Part shown: positions 16,827 through 37,353 of the stretch, piece by piece | How positions within the stretch are numbered: the stretch's first letter is position 1 | Layout of the letters: every line of letters starts with the position of its first letter | Assembly: GCF_048269865.1 (NCBI RefSeq) | Contig: NZ_JBLWUA010000009.1 | Coordinates: forward strand, 44,683 to 108,682 | Direction of reading: 5' to 3' | From: Parasphingorhabdus sp. | GTDB lineage: Bacteria; Pseudomonadota; Alphaproteobacteria; Sphingomonadales; Sphingomonadaceae | DNA: 64,000 nucleotides | Translations under genes and position numbers: made by a program | Notes under the pieces: model-generated | Seen by the model: the letters and a program-made list of their open reading frames with translations, nothing else | The model's database searches: none | What the model was told of the DNA's origin: nothing

Positions 16827-16869
16827 CAGCCCACAGTGTCGAAACCGGTTGCCTGCCGGTTGCCGCTAC

Positions 16870-16898
16870 GTGCTTCGACAGGCTCAGCACGAACGGGG
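16870..16898 (+). repeat. Single hairpin repeat module: GTGC-TTCGACAGGCTCA-GCAC followed by GAACGGGG
   Basis: It carries the same 13-nt loop core as the modules at 32997-33055 and 34617-34676. It sits in the intergenic region between the DMT and acyl-CoA dehydrogenase genes. Confidence 0.7.
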
Positions 16899-32990: not shown

Positions 32991-33080
32991 CCGTTAGCCC
33001 TGAGCTTCTCGAAGGGCGCCTTGCGACGGGAGGCGTGGTTCGACAGGCTCACCACTAACGGTTTTGAAGCAACCCCCGTT
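32991..33080 (-). repeat. Two-module hairpin repeat element, an inverted copy of the element inside ileS
   Basis: GCCC-TGAGCTTCTCGAA-GGGC (32997-33017) and GTGG-TTCGACAGGCTCA-CCAC (33035-33055). The reverse complement of 32991-33061 aligns with 34611-34682: the first 30 nt are identical and the last 29 nt match 27/29 (hand alignment). Confidence 0.8.
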
Positions 33081-33148: not shown

Positions 33149-36124
33149 ATGACCGACACCAAAGCAGATTACAAAGACACGGTTTTCCTGCCGAAAACCG
33201 ATTTCCCGATGAAAGCCGGCCTTGCCCAGAAGGAACCGGCGATTTTGGAACGCTGGCAGAGTATTGGGCTTTATGAAAAGCTGCGCGAGGCCCGGGCTGG
33301 CCGCGAGAAATTCATCCTGCATGACGGCCCGCCTTATGCCAATGGCAATATCCATATCGGCCACAGTCTCAACAAGACGCTGAAGGATCTGGTGGTTCGG
33401 TCGCAGAGCCTGCTCGGCAAGGATGCGCCCTATGTGCCGGGCTGGGATTGCCACGGGCTGCCGATCGAATGGAAGATCGAGGAACAATATCGCAAGAAGA
33501 AGCGCAACAAGGACGAGGTTCCGGCCAGCGAATTCCGCGCCGAATGTCGGACCTATGCCGACAAATGGGTCGACGTTCAGCGCGAGGAGTTCAAGCGCCT
33601 GGGCGTGATGGGCCAGTGGGACAAGCCCTATCTGACGATGGATTATGACGCCGAAGCGGCGATTGTCACCGAGCTATTGAAGTTCGCCGAAGCGGGCCAG
33701 CTCTATCGCGGCGCCAAGCCGGTGATGTGGTCGCCGGTGGAGAAGACCGCGCTGGCCGAGGCCGAGGTGGAATATGAGGATATCGTCTCGACGCAGATTG
33801 ACGTGGCGTTCGAGATTGTTGAAGCGCCGAATGCGCCGGAACTGGTTGGCGCCCACGCGGTAATCTGGACGACGACGCCTTGGACGATCCCTGTTAATCA
33901 GGCTTTGGCTTATGGGGCGGATGTTGATTATGTCTTGGTCGAAGTAACATCTGCTGACGAGTTTGTTGAAGATGGCGAAGATCCGATCTTTGAAAACCAT
34001 TGGGGTGCATATCTCATTGCTGAAGAGTTGATTCCGGAATTTGCACAACGAACGGCGAAAGGCTTTGGCGGAACCACTAATCTGGAGAATAAGTGGAAAG
34101 GCAAAGGCTCCCAGCTCGCCGGTGCCATCGCCAAACACCCGATGGCGAACAAATTCCCGGACAGCGAATTCTACACCAAGCCGCGCCCGTTTCTCGATGG
34201 CTCGCATTTCGTCACCACCGATGCGGGTACGGGGCTGGTCCATATGTCACCGGACCATGGCGAGGATGATTTCGATCTGTGCAAGAAAAACGGCATCAAC
34301 CCGGTGTTCGCGGTCGAGGCCGATGGCGTCTATCGCCAGGACTGGGAATGGCTGCCGCGCGGCGACGAGCGCTCCGGCGGGGTGATCAACAAGAATTTCA
34401 ACGGTCCACAAGGCCCGATCTGTTCGGATTTGCGCGAAGCGGGCGCGCTGCTCTCGGCCAGTGCCGATTTTACCCATAGCTATCCGCACAGCTGGCGGTC
34501 GAAGGCGAAGATCATCTATCGCTGCACGCCGCAATGGTTTGTGCCGATGGATAGACCTCTTCCCAAAGGCATCTCGACTTCGCTCGATGCGAACGGGGAT
34601 GGGGGCAAGACCGTTAGTGGTGAGCCTGTCGAACCACGCCTTTCGGACGAGAAGCGCCCTTCGACAAGCTCAGGGCTGACGGACTCCGCAACCCTCCGCG
34701 AAGTCGCGCTGGACGAAATCCGCAACAAGGTGCGCTTTGTGCCGGAACGAGGACGTCGTCGACTGGAATCGATGGTCGAGGGGCGACCCGACTGGGTGCT
34801 GTCGCGCCAGCGGGCCTGGGGCGTGCCGATTGCGCTTTATGTCGATCGCAAGAGCGGTGAATATCTCAATGATCCGGCGGTCAATGCGCGGATCATCGAA
34901 GCGTTCAAGACAGGCGGAGCCGATGCGTGGTTCAATGCCGATCATCAGGAATTTCTCGGCAACGCCTATGCGCTCGATGATTATGAAGTGATCACCGATA
35001 TTCTGGACGTCTGGTTCGACAGCGGCTGCACCCATGCCTTTGTGCTGGAGAGCGGCAAATGGCCGGAGCAGCGCAGCCCGGCGGATCTCTATCTGGAAGG
35101 CAGCGACCAGCATCGCGGCTGGTTCCAGTCGAGCCTGCTGGAGTCCTGCGGCACGCGGGGGCGGGCGCCTTACAAGGCGGTGCTGACCCACGGCATGACG
35201 CTCGACAAGACCGGCAAGAAAATGTCGAAGTCGCTCGGCAACACGCTCGATCCGAAGAAGATCATCGATGTGCAGGGCGCGGATATTTTGCGGCTGTGGG
35301 CGGCGAGTGTCGATTTTACCGAGGACCACCGGATCGGCGATGAAATCCTGAAAGGGGTTTCGGACAGCTACCGGAAGCTGCGCAATACGTTCCGCTATAT
35401 GCTCGGCGGGCTGGGTGATTTTACCGACGCCGAGCGGGTGGCTGTGGCCGATATGCCGGAGCTGGAACGCTATATCCTGCACCGGCTGGCCGAGGTCGAT
35501 GCGGAGCTGAAGCGCCATGTCAACGACTTCGCCTTCGGTCCCTATATGCGGGCGCTGAACGCCTTTGCGCAGGAAGACCTGAGCGCCTTCTTCTTCGATA
35601 TCCGCAAGGACTGCCTCTATTGCGATGCGGCGGATGATCCGAAGCGCATGGCGTACCGGACGGTGATGGATATCCTGTTCCACGCCCTCACCCGCTATAT
35701 CGCGCCGGTGCTGGTGTTTACCGCCGAGGAAATCTGGCAGAGCCGGTTCCCGGATGAGAATGACTCGATCCACTTGAAGGAATGGCCGGACGTTGACGCG
35801 GGCTGGACCGATGCCGATCTCGCTGGCAAATGGCAGAAAATTCGCGATGCGCGGGAAAAGGTCACCGAAGCGATCGAACCGTTGCGGCGGGAAAAGACGA
35901 TCCGGTCCAGTCTGGAAGCGGAAGTTGTCTATCCGATGGCCGACCTGCCGATCAGCACCGATGAATTTGCCGAGCTGGCGATTGTGGCGGATGTCACCGA
36001 TGGTGCCGAAATCACCGTGAGCAAGACCGATAATCACAAATGCGGTCGCTGCTGGCGGTTGCTGCCGGAAGTGGAAGAGGATGGAGCGTTGTGCGATCGT
36101 TGTACGGAGGTTTTGGCGGAATGA
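33149..36124 (+). CDS. ileS: Isoleucine--tRNA ligase
   Basis: HIGH (PYANGNIHIGH), KMSKS (KKMSKS), RPDWVLSRQRAWGVP and a C-terminal Cys cluster (CGRCWR...CDRC). 991 aa, including a repeat-derived insert at 34553-34693. Confidence 0.95.
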   Translation: MTDTKADYKDTVFLPKTDFPMKAGLAQKEPAILERWQSIGLYEKLREARAGREKFILHDGPPYANGNIHIGHSLNKTLKDLVVRSQSLLGKDAPYVPGWDCHGLPIEWKIEEQYRKKKRNKDEVPASEFRAECRTYADKWVDVQREEFKRLGVMGQWDKPYLTMDYDAEAAIVTELLKFAEAGQLYRGAKPVMWSPVEKTALAEAEVEYEDIVSTQIDVAFEIVEAPNAPELVGAHAVIWTTTPWTIPVNQALAYGADVDYVLVEVTSADEFVEDGEDPIFENHWGAYLIAEELIPEFAQRTAKGFGGTTNLENKWKGKGSQLAGAIAKHPMANKFPDSEFYTKPRPFLDGSHFVTTDAGTGLVHMSPDHGEDDFDLCKKNGINPVFAVEADGVYRQDWEWLPRGDERSGGVINKNFNGPQGPICSDLREAGALLSASADFTHSYPHSWRSKAKIIYRCTPQWFVPMDRPLPKGISTSLDANGDGGKTVSGEPVEPRLSDEKRPSTSSGLTDSATLREVALDEIRNKVRFVPERGRRRLESMVEGRPDWVLSRQRAWGVPIALYVDRKSGEYLNDPAVNARIIEAFKTGGADAWFNADHQEFLGNAYALDDYEVITDILDVWFDSGCTHAFVLESGKWPEQRSPADLYLEGSDQHRGWFQSSLLESCGTRGRAPYKAVLTHGMTLDKTGKKMSKSLGNTLDPKKIIDVQGADILRLWAASVDFTEDHRIGDEILKGVSDSYRKLRNTFRYMLGGLGDFTDAERVAVADMPELERYILHRLAEVDAELKRHVNDFAFGPYMRALNAFAQEDLSAFFFDIRKDCLYCDAADDPKRMAYRTVMDILFHALTRYIAPVLVFTAEEIWQSRFPDENDSIHLKEWPDVDAGWTDADLAGKWQKIRDAREKVTEAIEPLRREKTIRSSLEAEVVYPMADLPISTDEFAELAIVADVTDGAEITVSKTDNHKCGRCWRLLPEVEEDGALCDRCTEVLAE
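34569..34682 (+). repeat. Three-module hairpin repeat element embedded in frame in ileS
   Basis: GCATC-tcgacttcgctc-GATGC (34569-34590), GTGG-TGAGCCTGTCGAA-CCAC (34617-34637) and GCCC-TTCGACAAGCTCA-GGGC (34656-34676). See the copy at 32991-33080. Confidence 0.8.
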
Positions 36125-36140
36125 GTGATACGCACTCACT

Positions 36141-36220
36141 CGTCATCCTGAACTTGTTTCGGAATCCCGCCGGGCTTGGCGCTCTGTCGAGAGAGATCCT
36201 GAAACCAATTCAGGATGACG
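36141..36220. repeat. Palindromic MITE/REP-like element between ileS and lspA
   Basis: The arms CGTCATCCTGAACTTGTTTCGGAATC and GATCCTGAAACCAATTCAGGATGACG are about 26-nt imperfect inverted repeats around a roughly 28-nt centre. It may also act as the ileS terminator. Confidence 0.7.
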
Positions 36221-36262
36221 ACTTGCTGCTTCACGATGGCGCTGTTTGGAACGGATTTTGAT

Positions 36263-36851: not shown

Positions 36852-37259
36852 ATGCGTAAATCCACCGTCGCCATCAGCCTTCTTTCGCTGGCCAGCCTGA
36901 CGGCATGTGGTTCGAGCGGTCTGTTTGACCGGGATCGGCCCGACGAATTTGCGGTTTCGCGCCAGCCCCCGCTGGTCATCCCGCCCGATTTCACGCTGAC
37001 CCCGCCACAGCCCGGTCAGCCTCGGCCGCAAACCGGTGGCCTGCAACAGCAGACCCTGGAGGCCATGTTCGGCGGTCCCCAATCACGCAGCATCACCGAA
37101 TCGGCAATCGTCGATCAGGCTGGTAGCTCTGACGCTGGAATTCGTTCGTCGGTCGGTGATCCGGAGACGTTCACGGTCGACAAGGGCAGCGTAACCCGCG
37201 ACATCATCGCCGCTCCCGAAGGCGATGGCCAGAACGCACAGGCCGCTACGCCGCAGTGA
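36852..37259 (+). CDS. DUF3035-like lipoprotein
   Basis: Start at MRKSTVAISLLSLASLTAC (lipobox LTAC), followed by DEFAVSRQPPLVIPPDFTLTPP. Confidence 0.65.
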   Translation: MRKSTVAISLLSLASLTACGSSGLFDRDRPDEFAVSRQPPLVIPPDFTLTPPQPGQPRPQTGGLQQQTLEAMFGGPQSRSITESAIVDQAGSSDAGIRSSVGDPETFTVDKGSVTRDIIAAPEGDGQNAQAATPQ

Positions 37260-37317
37260 TATTGGTGCTCCGCCGTTGAGGTGGAGCTTGGCGATATTTC
37301 CCGTTTTATGGCGCAGG

Positions 37318-37338
37318 GCTCCGCATCGAGTGCGGAGC
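37318..37338. terminator. Hairpin between convergent genes
   Basis: GCTCCGCA-tcgag-TGCGGAGC lies between the DUF3035 gene end (37259) and the DUF167 gene end (37354). Confidence 0.45.
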
Positions 37339-37353
37339 ACCGGGGCACTCTCT

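Follow-up and report, generated by a model that had tools for sequence, protein, structure and literature searches.

The closest described systems are the GTAG- and CGTC-tagged repetitive extragenic palindromes (REPs), which lie mostly outside genes, occur mostly as dimers and are numerous in alphaproteobacteria, sphingomonads among them (Di Nocera et al. 2013, BMC Genomics 14:522, PMC3733652). Some of these REPs lie inside genes, among them tRNA synthetases of E. lithoralis and S. alaskensis, and a table of the same work records a CGTC-1 REP dimer in the IleS of Erythrobacter litoralis (ELI_13550, residues 467-488). The CGTC-1 to CGTC-4 units are characterised there by a CGTC (or TGTC/CCTC) tag, an 8-9-bp stem starting with AT and a 4-5-nt loop, and the CGTC-1/-4 units were equated with RPE-6/-4. 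Rickettsia palindromic elements (RPEs) are palindromic repeats inserted in frame in many, often essential, genes (Ogata et al. 2000, as presented in PMC10969869); the translated peptide segments were judged compatible with the protein fold. In REPINs (REP doublets forming hairpins; Bertels & Rainey 2011, PMC3116915), two inverted REP hairpins around a short spacer constitute the mobile unit, and single arms are remnants of dimers. Here we describe a stretch of 64,000 nt from Parasphingorhabdus sp. (contig NZ_JBLWUA010000009.1; hereafter the window), in which the isoleucyl-tRNA synthetase gene ileS carries an in-frame insert of 47 codons composed of half of one palindromic element (A) and the whole of a second one (B). 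With a rough probability of 85%, we consider this insert to be selfish REP/REPIN-like DNA which was fixed in frame and is tolerated as a hydrophilic loop peptide of IleS.

An in-frame insert behind the editing domain of IleS

The host gene and its insert occupy the following positions of the window:
33149-36124, plus strand: ileS, the host gene, an open reading frame (ORF) of 991 aa (ORF list; protein match; structures of isoleucyl-tRNA synthetase, IleRS).
34553-34693, plus strand: the in-frame insert, 141 nt or 47 codons, flanked by FVPMD and LREVALDEI.

The ileS product showed 100% identity to an NCBI Parasphingorhabdus sp. isoleucine--tRNA ligase and matched solved bacterial IleRS structures with an E value of 1e-205 (phmmer). 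The insert corresponds to IleS residues 469-515, reads RPLPKGISTSLDANGDGGKTVSGEPVEPRLSDEKRPSTSSGLTDSAT and is free of stops; its coordinates, sequence, translation, length and open frame were all as given in a first-pass annotation made from the sequence alone, which had also claimed that these codons are extra compared to orthologues. This second claim was borne out by both the structures and the orthologues. The phmmer alignment to the IleRS chains of the PDB splits at the insert (query residues 466-523 against chain residues 414-425), leaving about 46 residues without a counterpart in the solved structures. The segment running from QWF to (R/K)PDWxxSRQR, taken from 80 alphaproteobacterial ileS loci, measures 94 aa in the window compared to 49-60 aa outside Sphingomonadales: 49 aa, equivalent to a 3-residue loop, in SAR116 and several other lineages; 55-60 aa in Rhodobacterales and further groups. 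Within Sphingomonadales the segment ranged from 51 to 101 aa. The loop at the insertion point has 3-14 residues in other alphaproteobacteria, and the IleS loop of SAR116 and others has 3 residues, in agreement with the loop of about 3 residues which the annotation had given for E. coli.

The comparison of orthologues at residues 469-515, which had been proposed as a check, revealed close relatives without the insert or with other elements in its place: the IleS of strain NYA22, 91% identical to that of the window, has just 9 codons here (SEMEAAGGQ). An independent assembly (GCA_041748495.1, L003) harbours the same arrangement as the window, an A arm followed by B, which speaks against the assembly artefact that the annotation had named as a way for its claim to fail. 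The 47 codons are a true insertion. From the sequence alignment, the insert probably falls in the connective-peptide region, right behind the return strand of the editing domain; the domains of IleRS are named in the literature as connective peptide (CP) core, editing domain (ED), CP2 and CP3, with no residue ranges given. The translated insert would be a hydrophilic peptide rich in Pro, Ser, Gly and Glu, and the tryptic peptides predicted across it include TVSGEPVEPR and RPSTSSGLTDSATLR.

Modules A and B and the B-type repeat family

The insert is composite at the DNA level. Its parts, together with the other B-type loci of the window, are:
34568-34596, minus strand: lone arm of element A, CCGTTCGCATCGAGCGAAGTCGAGATGCC on this strand, encoding GISTSLDANG (module scan; single exact copy in the window).
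34597-34610, plus strand: linker GGATGGGGGCAAGA between the A arm and B, variable among orthologues.
34611-34639, plus strand: left arm of element B, with a CCGTTAG tag, the stem GTGG/CCAC and the loop TGAGCCTGTCGAA.
34640-34653, plus strand: central spacer of element B, 14 nt, different from that of the intergenic copy.
34654-34682, minus strand: right arm of element B, CCGTCAGCCCTGAGCTTGTCGAAGGGCGC on this strand, with the stem GCCC/GGGC.
32991-33061, minus strand: intergenic B dimer in the ribF-ileS spacer, in the opposite orientation to the ileS copy (blastn).
16869-16896, minus strand: single B-type arm CCGTTCGTGCTGAGCCTGTCGAAGCACG, intergenic, between two minus-strand ORFs.

The A arm is made up of a tag, a 5-bp stem (GCATC/GATGC) and a 12-nt loop; it is identical at 29 of 29 positions in the window, L001 and L003, and the linkers adjoining it vary. 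Element B (72 nt) has complementary arms and the termini CCGTTAG...CTGACGG, its right arm carrying a CCGTCAG tag. Positions 34611-34682 aligned to the reverse complement of 32991-33061 with 87.7% identity over 73 nt (blastn, E 2e-13): the first 30 nt were identical, the last 29 nt matched at 27 positions and the centre diverged, which confirmed in every detail the alignment made by hand in the first-pass annotation. Both copies are head-to-head dimers with spacers of 12-14 nt, and the 18-mer GTGAGCCTGTCGAACCAC occurs three times in the window at 3 or fewer mismatches, compared to 0.06 occurrences expected. Scanning the whole window for the pattern CCGTYMG, a perfect 5-bp stem and an 11-12-nt loop returned six clean modules, of which ileS contains three and the ribF-ileS spacer two, with the last at 16.9 kb (tags CCGTTAG, CCGTTCG or CCGTCAG); they form three repeat loci in the 64 kb, two of them intergenic. 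The three further, weaker matches compare to 3.4 expected by chance. Searching the 64-kb window against Rfam at gathering thresholds gave no match.

The insert had been presented originally as three hairpin modules. These are real units, as indicated by the module scan and by the covariation described below, but the second and third are at the same time the two arms of one dimer, and the first is half of another element. In the minimum-energy fold the arms of B pair mutually, forming one long imperfect hairpin, and the first module folds as a small hairpin of its own.

The spacer and ileS copies of B constitute an inverted pair 1.55 kb apart. B-type dimers were also found in the ribF-ileS spacer of L001, L002 and L003, with different stem variants and at times two elements. 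This spacer is no less dynamic than the IleS site within the gene.

The B-type family was analysed in 242 arms, drawn from all the DNA retrieved, including the metagenome matches listed. The loop TGAGCYTGTCGAA was constant across the 242 arms, and the 4-bp stem covaried (GCCC/GGGC, GGGC/GCCC, GTGC/GCAC, GTCC/GGAC, GTGG/CCAC) and was fully paired in 209 of them; the covariation of the stem around a fixed loop identifies the small hairpin as the conserved unit. Most arms carry a CCGTTCG or CCGTTAG tag, a feature which was fixed by the search pattern in the case of the metagenome-derived arms. B arms numbered 31 in 0.47 Mb of Sphingomonadales loci, compared to 4 in 1.24 Mb of other alphaproteobacteria. 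Scanning metagenomes with a degenerate arm pattern yielded at least 120 stretches, many of them head-to-head pairs 45-80 nt apart, and at least 24 head-to-head dimers were parsed among the matches listed.

These listed matches also include in-frame B-type repeats inside other proteins, located by means of their Pfam domains: TrpE, between Anth_synt_I_N and Chorismate_bind; UvrA, between the interaction and DNA-binding domains; the E2 component of 2-oxoacid dehydrogenase, in the linkers of the lipoyl domains; and an HsdS-like type I restriction S subunit, for which Pfam confirmed just the domain preceding the repeat. Two metagenome loci (L128, L197) have B-type arms in stop-free frames between a GIY-YIG-like N-terminal ORF and a MeaB/ArgK-like or RluD-like enzyme, which are either gene fusions via repeats or mere open intergenic frames. 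A word-indexed protein search with a tandem 48-aa B-peptide query gave no scored match. The exhaustive HMMER search with the 47-aa insert returned just three small ORFs (86-109 aa), which are probably gene calls over intergenic copies and do not constitute evidence of in-frame use.

Other repeats are located downstream of ileS. A head-to-head palindromic dimer at 36140-36221, 16 nt past the ileS stop (TCGTCATCCTGAACTTGTTTCGGAATC ... GATCCTGAAACCAATTCAGGATGACGA), corresponds to the CGTC-1 REP as published, with a CGTC tag, a stem that begins with AT and a loop of 4 nt; its right arm provides the ATG (36215) of the longest lspA ORF, so the lspA start is probably further downstream. An inverted repeat at 37264-37341, with 24-nt arms that are 79% complementary (GGTGCTCCGCCGTTGAGGTGGAGC / GCTCCGCATCGAGTGCGGAGCACC), adjoins the 3' end of a long ORF ending at 37259.

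The IleS loop as a recurrent site of palindromic elements

The alignment of 120 Parasphingorhabdus IleS proteins, all of them at least 74% identical to the query, demonstrated that the interval between FVPMD and TLRE ranges from 8 to 60 residues and falls into unrelated classes:
Class A: GISTSLDANG...PFVSSEVETQ, the complete two-armed A (L001/P0005 and related alleles).
Class A + B: complete A followed by B (P0003).
Class A-left + B: the window and L003.
Class B variant: VRAEPVEAQ...PSTSSGRTD.
C-type palindrome 1: PLPLAGGAGGGP...NPPLTPPASGRG.
C-type palindrome 2: APPPPAAVPLPTPSAQGG...DGEGDHAQHGGG, about 120 nt.
Class C-left + B: B preceded by the left arm of C-type palindrome 2 (L005).
Non-repeat loops: several.

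The A, B and C classes are palindromic at the DNA level, and the elements found at the site are all in frame and stop-free. B-like, A-like or C-like peptides are present at the same position in other Sphingomonadales genera, for example Allosphingosinicella and a Sphingomonas metagenome-assembled genome, with relatives that have none. Overall, at least five different palindromic elements occupy the loop in different lineages of Parasphingorhabdus and other Sphingomonadales. In the window, L003, L005 and L007 the right junction of B lies 11 nt ahead of the Leu-Arg codons (CTCCGC); this shared junction suggests one old insertion of B, the left side of which would have been remodelled later.

Descent of all these loops from one ancestral insert peptide was considered and ruled out, since the palindromes that occupy the site in neighbouring lineages are unrelated. 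A non-palindromic loop, about 33 aa long, (D/E)LTHLPAKTPxEKxWExEGGAxD...ETLCxxP, occupies the same site in several Sphingomonadales genera: Erythrobacter, Altererythrobacter, Sphingomicrobium and part of Parasphingorhabdus (L019, L022, L024, P0017 and others). It may be the older state of the loop in Sphingomonadales.

Repeat-derived peptides were found in some strains around IleS residues 334 and 881, positions at which the IleS of the window has none. In L004 the same 72-nt B core is inserted in the same frame (VSGEPVEPRLSDESRPSTSSGLT) around residue 334, where relatives have DKFPDS. This hotspot (KHPMAD-KFPDS-EFYTKPRPF) contains at least four different repeat-derived peptides among Parasphingorhabdus strains: B; the C-type LPFRGG...PNPSPEEEGL; and the CGTC-1-like RAGGSPSP...MDPRLRGD and SEGWNPS...PSLRWGD (carriers L004, P0036, P0076, P0108, P0113, P0117, P0119 and P0120). 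The hotspot around residue 881, behind HLKEWP, contains the CGTC-1-type dimer peptide GRPSEGWDP.QS..GLDPSLRWGD in 17 of the 120 orthologues (P0031, P0032, P0038, P0040-43, P0046, P0047, P0049-52, P0060, P0068, P0073 and P0082).

Origin of the insert and comparison with known systems

The first-pass annotation had interpreted the insert as a REP/MITE-like element (MITE, miniature inverted-repeat transposable element) tolerated within IleS, an interpretation which is now supported by the empty sites, the other locations of B and the in-frame copies in unrelated proteins. The 29-nt arms are short stem-loop palindromes within the 20-40 nt typical of REPs, and the 72-nt B shows the traits of a MITE, that is, terminal inverted repeats, a length within 50-500 bp and no transposase coding. 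The short hairpin modules, mostly head-to-head pairs whose usual home is between genes, would have been fixed in the reading frame of ileS, within a permissive loop of the enzyme, and would be translated there. An A dimer and a B dimer would both have entered the loop, with an allele like that of P0003 (for which the evidence is the protein sequence) keeping the two, and the lineage of the window would subsequently have retained only the left arm of A beside a complete B. Only two of the six reading frames of B are open and the one used in IleS yields a polar peptide; consequently, copies would be retained only if they are in the right frame and lie in a loop or linker, selection acting as a filter on where and how they persist. 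The insert is probably near-neutral for the enzyme. The mobilising enzyme is possibly a transposase like the REP-associated tyrosine transposases (RAYTs), acting on single-stranded hairpins.

Several observations weigh against this interpretation. B is better conserved than its host gene, with a nucleotide identity of 94-96% among the window, L003 and L005 compared to 83-88% for the ileS genes (binomial P about 0.05 and 0.004), and the window and L003 differ at three positions within B, all of them synonymous. This modest excess is not predicted for a purely neutral passenger, and may be due to recent spread, to gene conversion from other copies or to constraint on the element. The comparison of filled and empty sites revealed neither a target-site duplication nor a clean excision footprint: at IleS site 334 the net gain was 81 nt for the 72-nt core, with remodelled flanks and no recognisable direct repeat. 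No mobilising transposase was identified, although no search for Y1 transposases among the ORFs of the window was made. The presumed translation of the insert is based on the frame, the absence of stops and the recurring in-frame states. The AlphaFold2 model obtained with a genus-level alignment was poor overall (mean predicted local distance difference test, pLDDT, 46; predicted template modelling score, pTM, 0.29), so its low confidence at residues 475-512 carries no meaning for the presumed placement of the insert in a surface loop away from the tRNA.

The hairpins might instead be kept as nucleic acid, the peptide being a by-product. They could work as an mRNA structure pausing the ribosome after the editing domain and before the second half of the catalytic fold, as a processing or stability element, or as a protein-binding DNA site. 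This is unlikely, because many close relatives have no hairpin at this position or have quite a different one, indicating that no particular structure is required at the IleS site. The element cores are better conserved than the surrounding gene and the linkers, but recent spread or gene conversion would produce this conservation equally well; the stems covary, but as a property of the genome-wide family and not of the ileS copy. The insert does fold beyond its shuffles (RNA, -59.4 compared to -48.1 kcal/mol, z -2.6; DNA, z -2.95), and REPs elsewhere are thought to work as RNA or DNA elements.

That the loop constitutes an adaptively hypervariable surface patch of IleS, in which repeats are the raw material for diversifying selection by an inhibitor, a toxin, a phage factor or a partner, seems to us very improbable. 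It would account for the extreme turnover at one site in one genus (at least five element families, loops of 8-60 aa), for the two additional hotspots in IleS and for the use of the same site in other Sphingomonadales genera and in E. litoralis; however, an insertion preference for existing hairpins, as in nested REP clusters, would also generate hotspots, the presence of the same repeats in linkers of unrelated housekeeping proteins points to passive tolerance, and there is no known partner or selective agent. An assembly or annotation artefact, such as a chimeric repeat join or a mis-called ORF, deserves practically no credence even if repeats are a classic cause of misassembly and the source looks like a metagenome-assembled genome, since the ORF is unbroken with conserved IleS on either side, the independent L003 assembly shares the A arm and a B with three synonymous differences, and in-frame elements occupy the site in dozens of independent assemblies.

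Tolerated selfish DNA remains the preferred reading. A bolder proposal, which we regard as doubtful, is that the loop behind the editing domain, with its five or more repeat families and its nested and half-replaced elements, is a preferred landing pad for hairpins across Sphingomonadales, existing hairpins attracting new ones, and that the A/B modules (CCGTTCG tag, variable stem, strictly conserved loop of 11-13 nt) form an undescribed class of REPs whose conserved loop is recognised by a protein. If this were true, a housekeeping enzyme would be gaining a rapidly turning-over surface peptide built from repeats, and the recognition of the loop would explain why the ileS copy is better conserved than ileS.

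The locus is a clear example, from outside Rickettsia, of an essential enzyme that owes part of its protein sequence to repeat DNA. Close relatives display the filled, empty and layered states, which makes the locus usable to study loop peptides created by mobile hairpins, and it bears on the tolerance of a class I synthetase to insertions right behind its editing domain. Repeats of this kind also lengthen and disturb alignments of sphingomonad proteins and the gene calls made in these genomes. Since the phenomenon has been documented before, even for this site of IleS, no new question is opened; the recurrent hotspot and the repeat family with a conserved loop are only mildly novel aspects.

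The most similar case is the CGTC-1 dimer of E. litoralis, located in the same enzyme, in the same order and at essentially the same position; the numbering of ELI_13550, rather than an alignment of its sequence, suggests that the loop is the same. Like the repeats described here, the intragenic REPs of PMC3733652 are mostly extragenic, head-to-head palindromic units that occur in housekeeping genes and encode 20-30+ aa, and CGTC-1-type peptides (MDPRLRGD, LDPSLRWGD) are present at the other two IleS hotspots of Parasphingorhabdus. Unlike the ELI_13550 case, the insert of the window is composite and longer (47 aa). Unlike CGTC-1 to CGTC-4, the A and B modules combine a CCGTT(C/A)G tag with a GC-rich stem of 5 bp and a conserved loop of 11-12 nt; the dimensions of stem and loop rule out their membership of those families. 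The peptides encoded by A and B (EPVE, STSSG, STSLD, LSLSK, FDKLR) are absent from the PMC3733652 table, and a full-text literature search with the repeat DNA and the peptide strings retrieved only chance primer matches. Together with the differences from the published definitions, this indicates that the A/B family may be undescribed, although the kind of event has been described already.

The locus shares with REPINs the inverted hairpin pairs as a unit and the singleton arms; REPINs are defined together with a cognate RAYT and described as extragenic (no RAYT was looked for in the window). With the RPEs it shares the in-frame, stop-free presence in coding genes (two sites in IleS, TrpE, UvrA, E2). 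The RPEs differ in measuring approximately 100-150 bp, in belonging to different sequence families and in residing in a genus of obligate intracellular bacteria; the present host is a marine, free-living sphingomonad, and many families have repeatedly hit one loop.

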